Assembly (NCBI GenBank): GCA_900315695.1
Contig: ONAE01000005.1
Location: 1,468 to 65,467, forward strand
Source of the DNA: an uncultured Prevotella sp.
GTDB taxonomy: Bacteria; Bacteroidota; Bacteroidia; Bacteroidales; Bacteroidaceae
DNA: 64,000 nt
Direction of reading: 5' to 3'
Shown here: piece by piece, positions 50,779-55,488 of the stretch
Numbering within the stretch: position 1 is the first letter of the stretch
Layout of the letters: each line of letters begins with the position of its first letter
Position numbers and translations under genes: made by a program
Notes under the pieces: generated by a model
What the model was told of the DNA's origin: nothing
What the model saw: only the letters and a program-made list of their open reading frames with translations
Database searches by the model: none

Positions 50779-53559
50779 ATGCGAATGATGACTAAAAAGA
50801 TATTGCTCCTCACCTGTCTGCTGTTCTGCGGTCTGTGGCCTGCAACAGCACAATGGGCTCGCGACTATACCGAAGACCACCCACTCATCATCGTGAGCGA
50901 CTGGGAGTTCCCACCCTATGAGTTCCGGAATGACAATGGTAATCCTGACGGCTATAATGTGGAGGTGCTCGACCTCATCCTCGACAAGCTGGAGATTCCC
51001 CACAAGTTTGTGATGCAGGAGTGGTTTCAGTGTACCAAGACCTTTGAGAACCGTGAGGCAGACCTGATCCACGCCCTGACCAGCTACTATAAGAAGTCCC
51101 CGTATGTGATGACGCAGAACATGATCACCTACTATCCCCTGAAAGTGGTGAGACGAAAAAGTCAGAAGGTGATCCATCGTGTCAGTCAGTTCACCGACAA
51201 AGACACGCTGATGGTGAAGGAGAACGACTACGCGGCTCTGCGCATCCAGGCCATCGAGGATAAGCCCTTCCAGACAGAATACCGCTCTCCCAAAGAGGCT
51301 TTGGCAGCCATCCGAAATGGTCATCGCGCCTATTACATCTGGGGAGAGATCCCCCTGAAGATGAAGATCAAGGAGTATGGTCTCGACAGTCTGAAGCTCG
51401 ACGATATCGATATCATGCCGGCAGAGTTACGGATCATCGGTTATGACAGGGAGCTGATCGACGCCATCGATGATGCGTATGCCCGACTGGAGCAGTCAGG
51501 AGAGCTGCAACCCATCCACGACAAGTGGTTCAACCCCGAGCGCGTGCATAACGACTCCTCACCCATCGCCCTCTTTGCCCTGATCGGTTCGGTGATCGCC
51601 ATCATCATCGCCTTCCTGCTGAGCCGGCTGATCCATGCCAAAGTGAAGGCCACTGCCAGACGCTCAGAGGATATCAACGGGATGATGAAACAGGCCCTGC
51701 AGATGGGCAACTTCTACGTGTTCGAATACGACATCAAGACTGGTCATATAAGTAACACCTATGGCAAGCTGATTCCTGAGGAGGAACAGACGCTGGAGGC
51801 CTTTGTCAAACGCCTGGATCCTGCCATGCAACAGGATTTCATGCGCCATACGCAGGTGCTGATGAATGGGGAGGAACAGGACCGGTACTTTAACCGCCGC
51901 TATAACATCGGTACGGAAGAAGCACCAGACTGGCGTCATCTGGAAGGGACAGCCATCGTGGAGCAGGAGAACCACAAGCCCCGCTATCTCGTCTATGCGG
52001 TGAAGGACATCACCCAGGATGTGGAGTCGGAGCGCATCAACCAGGAGATCGGCAACAAATACGCCCGTATGTTTGAGACCAACCTCATCGCCATGTCGTT
52101 CTATGACAAGGAGGGCTGGTTTGTGGATGCGAACGAGAAAATGCGTGAACTCTGTGGCTTCGATGACAAAGGGTATGAGTTCTTCAGAAGCACGAACATG
52201 TTTGATACGAGCATGCTGGTGAACATCTATGAGAAGGGTTCACGGGAGCCCCTGCACATCTGCAGTCACATGTACTACCCGGAGGTGGATATCGACAGGT
52301 ATATCGAGCTCAGGATCCGTCCTATCCTCGATGAACAGGGGGAGCTGTTCTTCTATGTGATCACCTCACGAGACATCACCGCCGAGCGCACGATGTATCT
52401 TGAGAAGATGCACCATGACATCGAGATCCGCAAGACCTATGACGCCATCAACATCTATGAGCAGCAGCTCACCTATCTGCTGGAGAACAGTGAGATGTTC
52501 GTCTGGCGCTCTAACCTGCAGGAGCGTACCCTCTCCTATTCCCGTTCGTTGCGCAAGCCAGAGTTCCAGGAGACCATCGATGAGTATATCCAACGTATCT
52601 TCCCGGGTGAGGAGCAGGAGACCCTGAAAGCCTTCAGGGATCCGGAAACCATGAGCAAGGCCTTTAACGTGATTCATCACTACCGCTATAGTCACTACAA
52701 CAAGAAGCCTTCGTGGCATGCAGTGAGTGGCATCCCCACCTTCGACAAGAATGGTCATCAGATCGGTTACTTCGGTGTGTCGCGTGACATCACCAAACTT
52801 ATCGTGGCCCAACAGAAGCTGAAGAAAGAGACCGCCCGTGCCGAGGACTCCGGTAAGATGAAGAGTGCGTTCCTGGCCAATATGACCCATGAGATCCGTA
52901 CCCCGCTGAATGCCATCGTGGGCTTCAGCGACCTGTTGCCGATGGTGGATACCCACGAGGAGCGCATGGAGTTTATCCGTATCATCCGTAACAACTGTGA
53001 TATGCTGATGCGTCTCATCAACGATATCCTGGAGGCCTCGAACATGGGACAGGCCCTGGCCATCAAACCAGAGAAGGTGGATTTCGCCACCGTCTTCGAT
53101 GATATCTGTCAGACACTGGCACAGCGTGTGCAGGAGCCTGGCGTGGCGTTTATCAAAGACAATCCCTATGAACACTATGTGACCACCCTTGACAAGGGAC
53201 GCGTGCAGCAGATCCTCACGAACTTCACGACCAATGCCGTGAAATATACCCATGAGGGGCATATCAAGGTGGGGTATCGCTATGAACGCAGGATGACGCT
53301 CGATGAACAGGGGGAGGCAGACGGGCTGCTGTTCTATTGTGAGGATACCGGTGCCGGTATCCCCAAAGAGAAACAGGCCAGCGTCTTTGAGCGTTTCGTG
53401 AAGCTGAATGACTTTGTGCAGGGTACGGGATTGGGCCTGAGCATCTGTCAGGCCATCACCGACCGTTGTAACGGGCATATCGGAGTCACCTCCGAGGGCG
53501 AAGGCCATGGATCCACCTTCTGGATGTGGATTCCTTGTGAGAGGCAACCTCTCGAGTAA
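50779..53559 (+). CDS. Sensor histidine kinase HK4 with periplasmic solute-binding domain (intact)
   Basis: FPPYEFRNDNGNPDGYNVEV and TM; NMTHEIRTPLN, TNFTTNAVKYT, DTGAGI and GTGLGL motifs. Confidence 0.93.
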   Translation: MRMMTKKILLLTCLLFCGLWPATAQWARDYTEDHPLIIVSDWEFPPYEFRNDNGNPDGYNVEVLDLILDKLEIPHKFVMQEWFQCTKTFENREADLIHALTSYYKKSPYVMTQNMITYYPLKVVRRKSQKVIHRVSQFTDKDTLMVKENDYAALRIQAIEDKPFQTEYRSPKEALAAIRNGHRAYYIWGEIPLKMKIKEYGLDSLKLDDIDIMPAELRIIGYDRELIDAIDDAYARLEQSGELQPIHDKWFNPERVHNDSSPIALFALIGSVIAIIIAFLLSRLIHAKVKATARRSEDINGMMKQALQMGNFYVFEYDIKTGHISNTYGKLIPEEEQTLEAFVKRLDPAMQQDFMRHTQVLMNGEEQDRYFNRRYNIGTEEAPDWRHLEGTAIVEQENHKPRYLVYAVKDITQDVESERINQEIGNKYARMFETNLIAMSFYDKEGWFVDANEKMRELCGFDDKGYEFFRSTNMFDTSMLVNIYEKGSREPLHICSHMYYPEVDIDRYIELRIRPILDEQGELFFYVITSRDITAERTMYLEKMHHDIEIRKTYDAINIYEQQLTYLLENSEMFVWRSNLQERTLSYSRSLRKPEFQETIDEYIQRIFPGEEQETLKAFRDPETMSKAFNVIHHYRYSHYNKKPSWHAVSGIPTFDKNGHQIGYFGVSRDITKLIVAQQKLKKETARAEDSGKMKSAFLANMTHEIRTPLNAIVGFSDLLPMVDTHEERMEFIRIIRNNCDMLMRLINDILEASNMGQALAIKPEKVDFATVFDDICQTLAQRVQEPGVAFIKDNPYEHYVTTLDKGRVQQILTNFTTNAVKYTHEGHIKVGYRYERRMTLDEQGEADGLLFYCEDTGAGIPKEKQASVFERFVKLNDFVQGTGLGLSICQAITDRCNGHIGVTSEGEGHGSTFWMWIPCERQPLE

Positions 53560-53579
53560 ACTTTCTTTTTCTTTCGTTA

Positions 53580-54130
53580 TCGAAAGAGTTCTTCATTTCT
53601 TTCATCACTGAAAGAAACGAAGCAAAGAAAGGTGCAAAAACGTCCTGAGCTCAGAGGCCGAAACCCTATTTTTTCAAATCACTCAATGAACTCGCTTCGC
53701 TCAAACAGCATTTCGTATTTCGTTGCTCAGATTGCTATTCGCAATCCGAGACTCAATATCGATTCAAAAAAATAGAATTTCTCTAAAGACCTCTTCGTGC
53801 GGAATGTTTTTGATTTTTGGCTGCGCATTGGCTATTCGCCTCGCTAAACCGAGCCAAGCGAGCAAGCTCGTAACCGAACTGTGCTTCATGTTTTTTCGAA
53901 TGAATTCTCAAAAACATTCCGCACGAGGAGGTATTTATAGGATGTACTATTATCGGAATCTTCTTCGATTCTTGGATCGCGGAAGCGAGACAAGCAAATC
54001 GACATGAGAAGCTGTCTGAGCGAAGCGAGTTCTTCGAATGATTACGATAATATTACAGCCGACCTCTGAGCCCAGGACGTTTTTGAGAATTTGTTCGAAA
54101 TGATCAGGCAGAAAGGAAATGAAGAGAAAA
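53580..54130. repeat. Large nested imperfect palindromic element
   Basis: Paired arms 53589-53603/54110-54125, 53635-53657/54063-54085, 53679-53709/54011-54041 and 53789-53813/53908-53932. Confidence 0.85.
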
Positions 54131-54138
54131 CCCTCCTC

Positions 54139-55488
54139 TTAAAAGAGGAAAGTCTTCTCAAGCCAATAGCAGAAGATGCCTGCCAGGTAGCCGGTAAACG
54201 CTACCCAGGTGATCTTCTTCATATACCAGCCGAAGGTAATCTTCTCAAGACCCATGACCACCACACCGGCAGCAGAGCCGATGATCAGCATTGATCCCCC
54301 CACACCGGCACAGTATGCCAACAGCTGCCAGAAGATGCCATCGACAGCCATATCGCCGGCAGCAGCCACTGGATACATACCCATGCAACCAGCCACCAGA
54401 GGCACATTATCCACGATGGAGGAGAGGACACCGATGATGCCGGTGACGAGGTAGTGGTTGCCCTCGAAGACGGTATCGAGCGTCTGTCCCAACAGGGTGA
54501 GCGCACCGATGGTCTCCAGACAGGCCACAGCCATCAGGATGCCCAGGAAGAAGAGGATGGTGTCCATGTCGATGCGAGACAGCATCTTTGACACGCGTTT
54601 CTGGGGACTGTTCTTCGCGTCTTCGCCTTCCTGGTGGATACGGCAATAGAAGATCTCCGTGACCGTCCAGAGCACACCGAGCACGAGCAGGATGCCTACA
54701 AATGGCGGCAGATGGGTGATGGTCTTGAAGATAGGCACGAAGATGAGACCACCGACACCGAGGAAGAAAATGATCTTACGCTGGGCAGGCGTCAGAGGGT
54801 CGTCGTCATCGACAACAACCGTCTCCTTCACAGGCTGAAGGGCACCCTTCAGCGAGAGGGAGAGGATATAGGCGGGGATGACCATCGACACCACTGAGGG
54901 GATGAATATCTCCATGATGACACCGGCAGCGGTGATAACACCCTTGTTCCAGAGCATGATGGTGGTGACATCGCCGATGGGCGAGAAGGCACCACCGGAG
55001 TTGGCTGCAATCACTACAAGAGCGGCATAGATAATACGGTCCTCCTTGTCGTTGACAAGCTTACGCAGGATCATGATCATCACAATCGACGTGGTGAGGT
55101 TGTCGAGGATGGCCGAGAGGATGAACGTCATGCAGGCGATACGCCACAGCAGGGAGCGCTTCGACGTGGTCTGCAGCGTGTCACGCACAAAGTTGAAGCC
55201 ACCGTTCTGATCAACGAGCTCCACGATTGTCATGGCACCCATGAGGAAGAACAGGGTGGTGGCAGTGGAACCGAGGTGATGCTCGATCGTGGTGCTGACC
55301 ACCGAGGCTTTCATGGCATCAATGGCATCAGGCAGATATGACTCAGGCGCAATCATGAAGAGGGTCCATGTGACCACAAACATCAGCAGGGCAATAGCGG
55401 CCTTGTTGATCTTGGTAACGCTTTCGATGGCTATGCAGAAATAGCCGATACAGAAAACGATGATGATAGCAATTGACAATAATGACAT
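54139..55488 (-). CDS. nhaD: NhaD-family Na+/H+ antiporter
   Basis: INKAA, LFFLMGAMTIVE, SAILDNLTT, ANSGGAFSPIGDVTT, SSIVDNVP and IIGSAAGV motifs. Confidence 0.88.
   Translation of the reverse strand: MSLLSIAIIIVFCIGYFCIAIESVTKINKAAIALLMFVVTWTLFMIAPESYLPDAIDAMKASVVSTTIEHHLGSTATTLFFLMGAMTIVELVDQNGGFNFVRDTLQTTSKRSLLWRIACMTFILSAILDNLTTSIVMIMILRKLVNDKEDRIIYAALVVIAANSGGAFSPIGDVTTIMLWNKGVITAAGVIMEIFIPSVVSMVIPAYILSLSLKGALQPVKETVVVDDDDPLTPAQRKIIFFLGVGGLIFVPIFKTITHLPPFVGILLVLGVLWTVTEIFYCRIHQEGEDAKNSPQKRVSKMLSRIDMDTILFFLGILMAVACLETIGALTLLGQTLDTVFEGNHYLVTGIIGVLSSIVDNVPLVAGCMGMYPVAAAGDMAVDGIFWQLLAYCAGVGGSMLIIGSAAGVVVMGLEKITFGWYMKKITWVAFTGYLAGIFCYWLEKTFLF

Follow-up and report, generated by a model that had tools for sequence, protein, structure and literature searches.

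What is a palindrome of some 550 bp doing in the space between two convergent genes, is it one folded element or several, and does it act as DNA or as RNA? The locus in question belongs to an uncultured Prevotella sp. (GCA_900315695.1, contig ONAE01000005.1, positions 1,468-65,467); the whole stretch of 64,000 nt that was analysed is called the window, and it comes from a metagenome-assembled genome (MAG; G000) of 3.18 Mb in 169 contigs. The palindrome is flanked by genes for a sensor kinase and an nhaD-like transporter and is a tail-to-tail doublet of two non-coding units of ~230 nt that belong to different subfamilies, A and B. These units are members of a family of interspersed palindromic DNA repeats, the hallmark and most conserved block of which is a 22-mer, GAACTCGCTWCGCTCARACAGC.

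Two inverted units in one palindrome

The left and right arms of the palindrome are only ~73% alike. A search of the window's own genome detected two further sequences, C58:22420-22690 and C68:41087-41317, which are 88-89% identical to the right arm but reach only 73-75% with the left one. Since these single copies resemble the right arm far more than the left, the palindrome consists of two units. A short sequence, C68:40833-40876, is 98% identical to window 53592-53635, and an nhmmer profile search of the same genome recovers exactly four units, showing the element to be multi-copy. The alignment of 17 Prevotella-type copies, taken from five genomes of the genus (the window's own included), the Prevotellaceae MAGs RUG295 and RUG14586, and the window, gives an intra-unit fold of 43 pairs with 96% of the cells paired, against only 38-45% when the partners are slid by 1-3 columns. 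Double-sided changes are found at 20 of these pairs, a number reached by none of 500 shuffles. Evolution conserves the hairpin of each unit and not the arm-to-arm rod; the single nested palindrome proposed in an earlier reading, made from the letters of the window and here called the sequence-only reading, gives way to two units with a fold of their own. Arm-to-arm pairing on one strand gains ~60 kcal/mol with RNA parameters, or ~30 with DNA parameters, because two homologous hairpins stand inverted. The doublet and its immediate surroundings comprise the following parts.

53568-53587, plus strand: terminator-like hairpin TTTCTTTCGTTATCGAAAGA, just 3' of the kinase stop codon
53591-53812, plus strand: left unit, subfamily A
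53591-53634, plus strand: 5' clamp of the left unit, a pyrimidine/purine hairpin with mirror purine strand and loop pseudoknot
53635-53812, plus strand: core of the left unit (A), a self-complementary hairpin closed by CAAAAACGTCC / GGAATGTTTTTG
53688-53709, plus strand: universal 22-mer of the left unit, GAACTCGCTTCGCTCAAACAGC, apical, closed by covarying AAT/ATT
53813-53908, no strand: central spacer (~95 nt) with small hairpins, including the 3' extension of the B unit
53909-54125, minus strand: right unit, subfamily B
53909-54085, minus strand: core of the right unit (B, inverted), 88-89% identical to the C68 and C58 copies
53894-53908 / 54086-54100: outer closing stem of the right unit itself
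54011-54032, minus strand: universal 22-mer of the right unit, read on the minus strand as GAACTCGCTTCGCTCAGACAGC, closed by GAA/TTC
54104-54125, minus strand: degenerate half-clamp of the right unit, homologous to the pyrimidine arm only, pairing with 53590-53611
54124-54159, minus strand: terminator-like hairpin overlapping the stop codon of the nhaD-like gene

The left core is 88.7% identical to the A unit of Prevotella RUG295, which is located at a different locus. The hairpin next to the kinase gene (53568-53591) is a 24-nt indel, missing from the conspecific contigs L217 and L220, and is a diverged direct copy of the clamp hairpin.

The gap that holds the doublet (53560-54138) is bordered by the sensor kinase gene on the left (50779-53559, plus strand; domains SBP_bac_3, PAS, HisKA and HATPase_c) and by the nhaD-like transporter gene on the right (54139-55488, minus strand; CitMHS match). 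Within it, window 53590-54125 is a long imperfect palindrome with its centre at ~53860, composed of four nested arm pairs in an inverted-repeat search.

53635-53660 / 54060-54085: arm pair of 26 nt, 92% complementary
53677-53727 / 53993-54043: arm pair of 51 nt, 76% complementary
53740-53813 / 53908-53981: arm pair of 74 nt, 72% complementary
53590-53611 / 54104-54125: outermost purine/pyrimidine arm pair of 22 nt, 77% complementary

The region 53560-54140, folded as RNA on each strand and compared with 100 shuffles, reaches -228 kcal/mol on the plus strand and -249 on the minus strand, the shuffle values being -145 and -152 (z = -14.7 and -14.4, respectively); none of the 100 shuffles equals the native energy on either strand. 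The nested inverted arms of the sequence-only reading are therefore real and beyond chance, with one common centre (z ~-14.5), and the small inner hairpins that it had placed near 53840-53870 are present in the folds. Its geometry and coordinates hold, while its arm lengths were approximate and the arms are broken more often than it had claimed. It had also seen no credible open reading frame (ORF) or transposase inside, with which our data agree: none of the stop-free frames in the gap is retained in the diverged homologous copy L216, and the space between the two flanking genes holds no Pfam-bearing gene.

The 22-mer loop and the 5' clamp

A scan of one genome per GTDB species with the 22-mer gives matches at at least 120 loci, with a chance expectation that we estimate at ~0.3 matches. 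The cross-phylum tallies rest on the matches listed, among which are Bacteroidota (Prevotella, Bacteroides, Parabacteroides, Phocaeicola, Flavobacterium, Joostella, Sphingobacterium, Pedobacter and Geofilum), Pseudomonadota (many Variovorax, Herminiimonas, Methylophaga, Thiomicrorhabdus and Lonepinella), Bacillota (Lachnospiraceae, Clostridiaceae and Anaerovoracaceae), as well as Acidobacteriota, Nitrospirota, Desulfobacterota, Melainabacteria (Gastranaerophilales) and a bacterium of the candidate phyla radiation (CPR). The 22-mer caps lineage-specific, fully covarying stems in, for example, Variovorax, Flavobacteriia, Lachnospiraceae, Acidobacteriota, Nitrospirota and CPR, where a genome has 4 to 93 copies. 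In 110 non-redundant copies, the stem directly flanking it has 8-9 bp, which are 75-95% Watson-Crick and use all four pair types; the three positions nearest the 22-mer are Watson-Crick in 105, 103 and 101 of the 110 copies. Because this stem pairs while using all four pair types, the 22-mer is the loop of a hairpin, the stem sequence being free provided that pairing holds. In the Prevotella-type copies the closing stem is 3 bp long and covaries (AAT/ATT, GAT/ATC, GAA/TTC, GGA/TCC and AAA/TTT). The ends of the 22-mer covary as well, from G1-C22 to A1-T22, and one base in its middle, the only one that varies freely, corresponds to the N of GCGNAGC when the opposite strand is read, GCGNAGC being the classic stable GNA mini-hairpin.

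The distribution of the family is patchy. The 22-mer occurs in 5/201 genomes of the genus and in 3/250 other genomes of the phylum, it has no match in 5,426 E. coli genomes, and the copies per genome range from 1 to 93, with 79 in Joostella and 93 in a mouse-gut Lachnospiraceae. A phage collection gave chance-level partial matches only. In plasmid records the 22-mer is found mainly in Ralstonia megaplasmids, under no annotated feature; matches in Acinetobacter plasmids are weak (78%) and probably unrelated. The isolate and complete genomes with units include Variovorax chromosomes, Parabacteroides chinchillae DSM 29073 and Flavobacterium.

Rfam cmscan of the window region at E<1 returned only chance microRNA and small-RNA matches (E 0.04-0.7, far under the gathering scores), and nothing beyond chance for five loci from other phyla. 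In the literature, the 22-mer, its halves and its RNA spellings retrieved no paper or unrelated primers, and GCGAAGC together with repeat terms nothing relevant. The superfamily defined by the 22-nt loop thus appears to be undescribed, as far as Rfam and searchable papers show; the sequence-only reading had allowed for a match to an already described repeat family, and only the clamp module fits a described class (PMC4666352). As a search handle, the 22-mer ties together large palindromes of rumen Prevotella, soil Variovorax, Flavobacteriia, gut Lachnospiraceae, Acidobacteriota and CPR, and makes the partner protein, hairpin binding and mobility testable in culturable high-copy hosts.

The second module, the 5' clamp, is present in 64 of 115 surveyed units, 83-117 nt upstream of the 22-mer, with 0 occurrences in shuffled upstream regions and 6-8 matches in wrong-side controls; the survey detected no clamp in the right unit of the window. 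It is made up, in order, of a pyrimidine-rich arm, a short loop, a purine-rich arm and a second purine tract that mirrors the purine arm, and bases of its flank are complementary to the hairpin loop (for example CTTGAC/GTCAAG, TGCGCC/GGCGCC and TCAC/GTG). The left clamp of the window has the following segments.

53591-53604, plus strand: pyrimidine arm
53605-53608, plus strand: loop TCAC
53609-53622, plus strand: purine arm
53623-53632, plus strand: mirror purine third strand CAAAGAAAGG
53632-53634, plus strand: GTG, complementary to the loop (pseudoknot)

This clamp has 12 pairs and 10 mirror matches: its purine arm GAAAGAAAC is exactly mirrored by CAAAGAAAG, and the position of the mirror G covaries among copies (AAAAGAAA with AAAGAAAA). 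The strand pattern of 53591-53632 is the one that defines the intrastrand triplex motifs of the TMECO/BoxC class (PMC4666352), and the clamp may, to judge from this pattern, fold as such a triplex. TMECO/BoxC motifs fold in vitro and mark unstable loci (Holder et al. 2015, PMC4666352). The clamp resembles the TMECO/BoxC/PIT motifs (PMC4666352; Hoyne et al. 2000 cited there) in its strand order, its intergenic location, its multiple copies and its association with rearranged loci, the gap studied here existing in four states and one unit lying at an inversion breakpoint. It differs from them in being A/T-rich, in the added loop-to-flank pseudoknot, and in being only the 5' module of a larger unit whose 22-mer hairpin is absent from the description in PMC4666352. 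Its arms are not of the CCCTCNCCC/GGGNGAGGG type, and since the TMECO consensus, CCCTCNCCC N3-6 GGGNGAGGG N3 GGGNGAGGG (PMC4666352), is unmatched, identity with TMECO is excluded. If the clamp triplex forms in cells, the mirror covariation would be evolutionary evidence that such folds are selected.

Copies that lack a clamp (L010, L011, L165, L182, L183 and L186) have outer stems of 10-25 bp, which are copy-specific and complementary within each copy. Even the copy located within a helicase gene has such a stem. These copy-specific outer stems are not obviously accounted for by a direct target duplication, nor by units having landed in hairpins that already existed.

Arrangement of the units and history of the locus

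When neighbouring units are inverted, they adopt a single arrangement, with 24 +/- pairs vs 0 -/+ pairs and the clamps facing outward. Doublets of this kind are found in Prevotella, Variovorax, Parabacteroides and Lachnospiraceae. All 5 Prevotella-type doublets, at four different loci, are composed of one A and one B unit. Because they differ in their spacer and in the side that bears the clamp, they give the impression of having been put together unit by unit, not transferred whole; alternatively, only diverged pairs may survive, perfect palindromes being unstable.

Other arrangements occur in the family. In Flavobacterium sp. 14A (L159:2302-4650), 12 units form a head-to-tail tandem array with an exact, satellite-like period of 213 bp, a third arrangement besides singles and inverted doublets. 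In a Bacteroidales MAG (JAZNVS010000071.1, L055:528-3665), three units of the same direction stand ~1.5 kb apart, interleaved with small accessory genes (KilA-N, UDG-superfamily and a YhcG/DUF1016 PDDEXK nuclease) in a layout that resembles a cassette array; no integrase was found within 8 kb. In a Lachnospiraceae MAG (JBJEOA010000036.1, L061:940-2470), two inverted units ~1.5 kb apart enclose no ORF but perfect DnaA-box clusters (TTATCCACA) and iterons that repeat GATGTAGATAATGTAG; the adjacent gene (D5/primase-like) has matches to Pox_D5 and DUF5906 that are weak and lie below threshold. From its sequence, this region looks like the replication origin of an integrated element framed by hairpin units.

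The 79 copies of Joostella sp. CR20 (G067) allow orientation to be followed along contigs, where it runs in 6/6, 6/6, 6/7, 4/4 and 14/19 copies. The GCGNAGC strand lies on the G-rich strand in 25 of 30 copies, the orientation being opposite to the local GC-skew sign, and GC skew predicts orientation better than the direction of the neighbouring gene does (~68%). This bias fits action on one replication template, which we regard as a lead.

A metagenome scan using the 3' end of the kinase gene yielded 16 contigs, and the kinase-nhaD gap exists in four states among its relatives: a terminator only, an AraC gene, the doublet, or a collapsed 30-bp remnant. The doublet is carried by L217 and L220 (conspecific, 96-97%) and by the diverged L216. 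Five contigs have a gap of 45-90 nt that contains a GC-rich terminator hairpin only (AAATCCCCGCC...GGCGGGGATTT), and in six contigs, as in the reference genomes G061, G034 and G064, the gap is occupied by an AraC-family gene of 289 aa. Likewise, in the closest reference relatives (L025, L037 and L048, compared with window 53541-54147) a 289-aa AraC-family regulator gene stands between the kinase and nhaD genes. The window's genome has no orthologue of this gene anywhere, the best tblastn match being 35% over the helix-turn-helix only, and tblastn found no remnant of it inside the palindrome; the window's kinase operon has lost its adjacent AraC regulator. The element explains why the space between these convergent genes is a local hot spot, from which a terminator and a regulator gene have disappeared.

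The collapsed state, found in L213 (JAEEGI010003382.1), is a perfect 30-bp palindrome, CCAAAACGTCCTGAGCTCAGGACGTTTTGG, that corresponds to the two outer termini head to head. The flanks of L213 and L216 show ~1.4% divergence, and L216 retains the full doublet. The remnant is a centre-symmetric collapse, the product to be expected if a long hairpin is bypassed or excised symmetrically, and it provides indirect evidence that the whole rod forms in vivo at times. Of the proposal that the region folds as one rod, the ability to extrude as a rod probably stands; the rod itself is a by-product and is not conserved.

Comparison of the window with L216 gives identities of 94.4% for the left core and 91.0% for the right core, vs 88% for the end of the kinase gene, 77% for the end of the transporter gene and 42% for the spacer. 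The high core identity reflects either constraint or renewed insertion or conversion from a conserved source. In the tree of the flanks the doublet carriers fall into two subclades with an empty site between them, and a single origin of the doublet at this locus is for this reason not assured.

Two other copies inform on the mobility of the units. In G024, a unit is inserted in frame and antisense in the gene of a UvrD/PD-(D/E)XK protein, where it occupies the linker that joins the helicase domain to the nuclease domain, and the frame is open. The helicase orthologue is present without the unit stretch in 35 of the 37 genomes searched (the window's own included), and in five aligned orthologues the linker is ~40 aa shorter. 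In the window's genome, the single B unit at C58:22412-22941 lies at an inversion breakpoint relative to four relatives: in these, a lipoprotein gene comes after a DHH-like gene and shares its strand, whereas in G000 the unit is followed by glmM and that lipoprotein gene, both inverted. No clean empty site was found for this copy, the relatives differing in gene order (inversion).

Mode of action and identity of the element

In the apical stems of the 110 copies, the two kinds of mismatch are equally rare, with 14 G·T vs 16 A·C, which points to DNA, not RNA, as the molecule that pairs. Of the changed cells in the Prevotella alignment, 85 differ on both sides vs 4 on one side. The gene upstream of a unit is co-oriented in 39 cases and opposed in 38 across taxa, as judged from crude gene calls, and in Joostella ~70% of the units are antisense to the neighbouring genes. 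The sequence-only reading had held that several of the mismatches are transitions that would form G-U pairs or tolerate pairing; these counts do not bear out a behaviour like that of G-U pairs in RNA. It had also proposed a large structured non-coding RNA (ncRNA) as a candidate; this candidate is weakened, the wobble signature lacking and the changes being nearly all double-sided. The units probably act at the DNA level, not as RNA.

A structured ncRNA would be transcribed as the 3' untranslated region of the upstream gene or as a small RNA of its own, and the hairpin, triplex and pseudoknot would act in RNA, for instance in 3'-end protection (ENE/MALAT1-type) or termination, the 22-nt loop binding a conserved RNA-binding factor. 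We consider this unlikely, for the reasons of wobble, one-sided change and mixed orientation just given and also because one copy lies antisense inside an ORF, no sigma-70-like promoter was found in a scan that does not cover Bacteroidota promoters, Rfam holds no credible match at E<1, and the element is present in only ~1-2% of genomes. The strong covarying fold would nevertheless suit an RNA, as would the better conservation of the unit cores than of the flanking genes and the doublet having taken the place of the terminator seen at empty sites. The clamp could do so too: in minus orientation it is laid out like an H-type pseudoknot whose U-rich loop 1 runs parallel to its purine strand, and its geometry reads as classical U·A-U / C+·G-C. 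Both the model match in Rfam and the wobble signature fail, so that the units fit no known RNA family.

The reading that we prefer, with a probability of about 0.6, is a non-autonomous, structured mobile DNA repeat, for which a mechanism based on single-stranded DNA (ssDNA) hairpins is the best fit. The units would act as DNA, probably single-stranded, e.g. at the replication fork. The 22-nt loop and the imperfect fixed termini CAAAAACGTCC / GGAATGTTTTTG would be the recognition sites of a trans-acting protein encoded outside the element, by which the units would be copied or moved into the DNA between genes and, on rare occasions, into gene segments that tolerate them. The 550-bp palindrome would be a by-product of the inverted unit order, able to extrude as a rod and to undergo centre-symmetric deletion. 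At this locus the doublet would have replaced the ancestral terminator or the AraC gene, and it probably supplies hairpins that end the two convergent transcripts. The non-autonomous element of the sequence-only reading is retained here as a gene-less, multi-copy, mobile-like hairpin repeat, without the HUH/Y1 transposase that was to move it, Y1_Tnp showing no co-occurrence; nor do the data make it a classical MITE (miniature inverted-repeat transposable element), as neither a target-site duplication nor a parent insertion sequence (IS) was found. If the partner is new, so would be the mechanism of DNA mobility or of single-strand DNA recognition.

Several observations weigh against a mobile repeat of this kind. 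Clustering of 736 ORFs from 120 listed loci revealed no mobilising enzyme, the recurrent neighbours being only housekeeping families and spurious ORFs running through the repeats. Y1_Tnp (PF01797) does not track the element, being present in 8 of 10 carrier and 5 of 8 non-carrier genomes, and the carriers G092 and G069 (11 copies) have no PF01797. No target-site duplication or clean filled-empty junction is definable, the flanks of the empty sites being 13-25% diverged; different copies are bordered by inverted copy-specific outer stems and not by direct repeats, and the empty sites are highly diverged, with the terminator replaced, not split. All five intergenic copies of G000 and G024 start ~10-50 nt after a stop codon in the sense direction, which would also suit an ncRNA. 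The link between orientation and GC skew did not recur when 8-kb windows of mixed taxa were compared (27 vs 30). Finally, it is difficult to see how a purely selfish element that has no conserved partner would keep a 22-nt loop in different phyla, and the conservation of the cores above that of the flanking genes could mean a host-useful function.

The units could instead be a host- or replicon-level DNA site that does not move, such as an orphan single-strand initiation signal for priming, a place where forks pause or the target of a nucleoid or replication protein, with inverted pairs like ssiA/ssiB in IncQ origins recognised via the 22-nt loop. Indeed, the invariance of the 22-nt motif across phyla suggests a conserved protein reader, the inverted units of L061 enclose 1.4 kb of DnaA-box clusters (TTATCCACA) and iterons beside a D5/primase-like gene, the Joostella bias extends to the scale of chromosome arms, and the GCGNAGC mini-hairpin reportedly occurs in single-strand origins (the work of Hirao). 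Such a site is, however, quite improbable for an element that is so patchy (5/201 in the genus, 3/250 in the phylum, 0 in E. coli), that ranges from 1 to 93 copies with one of them inside a gene, that shows origin-like cargo at one locus only, and that is absent from the phage collection and found on plasmids mainly in Ralstonia megaplasmids. The chance that the palindrome is an accident or an artefact (an assembly foldback, a chimera or a local inverted duplication) is negligible. Metagenome assemblies do contain foldback chimeras, and the window belongs to a 169-contig MAG, but the doublet is present at the same locus in three independent metagenome contigs (L217, L220 and L216), units occur in isolate and complete genomes, and the arms, being only 73% alike, do not stem from a recent duplication.

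A broader version of the mobile DNA repeat can be put forward tentatively. The units may form a hitherto unrecognised class of hairpin DNA elements spanning phyla, whose loop, embedded GCGNAGC mini-hairpin and triplex-pseudoknot clamp might be read as ssDNA by one conserved protein, either a horizontally spreading mobilisation enzyme or a core replication factor (primase or PriA-type); doublets would then be the replicative form, and orphan copies would be fork-associated sites that drive local deletions and inversions.

Among known systems, the closest in organisation are the repetitive extragenic palindromes (REP/REPIN, or BIME) of Proteobacteria, mobilised by the RAYT Y1 transposases. They are likewise non-coding, intergenic, multi-copy hairpins with inverted doublets of fixed orientation as the persistent form, a partner enzyme encoded elsewhere and a supposed action as ssDNA hairpins. 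The units studied here are ~180-230 nt long vs 20-40 nt for REP, have a conserved 22-mer loop and an CAAAAACGTCC terminus in place of the GTAG/CGTC head, are conserved in the apical loop and not at the stem foot, and have one motif in common from phylum to phylum, REP sequences being particular to each RAYT clade; the presence of Y1_Tnp does not follow that of the units. A REP identity is excluded because the size, the head motif and the RAYT link fail. MITEs and mosaic repeats (Correia/NEMIS, ERIC/IRU, RUP, Nezha and Chunjie) are similarly small, gene-less, multi-copy, fold-back and patchy, intergenic, often near gene ends and able to supply terminators. In MITEs the ends are invariant and the middle varies, and here the reverse holds. 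The genome contains no element with CAAAAACGTCC / GGAATGTTTTTG ends that is longer than the units, and at the 120 listed loci no transposase is found repeatedly next to them; with neither a parent IS nor a target duplication found, a classical MITE is not supported.

Rickettsia palindromic elements can reside in frame inside genes, as the unit in the helicase linker of G024 does; they are confined to Rickettsia, unrelated in sequence and commonly found within genes, in contrast to the one in-gene copy here. The hairpins read by HUH enzymes (IS200/IS605 ends, rolling-circle origins and ssoA with its CS-6 loop, compared here in anatomy only) combine a variable stem with a conserved loop and are expected to act strand-specifically as ssDNA, which recalls the replication-related orientation bias of one genome here; in our case there is no adjacent Rep or TnpA gene, and chromosomal copies number in the dozens. 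An origin from IS200/IS605 could make the A/B hetero-doublets mimic dissimilar left and right ends, although Y1_Tnp does not track the units. Integron attC sites were rejected, the termini and length of the units not fitting R''/R' (RYYYAAC ... GTTRRRY) and 57-141 nt, and the RfaH ops element, dif/Xer, parS, DnaA boxes, rRNA/tRNA complementarity and CRISPR repeats were dropped on sequence grounds.

Elsewhere in the window's genome, C68:40877-41086 holds ~210 nt of unrelated GC-rich hairpins, including GCAGGGCAAAGCCCTGC, CCCCTCTTCATAAGAAGGGG and CCCCTCGCCAATCTCTGGCAAGGGG, with an orphan clamp fragment on one side and an inverted B unit on the other. This arrangement may be a mosaic with another repeat family.

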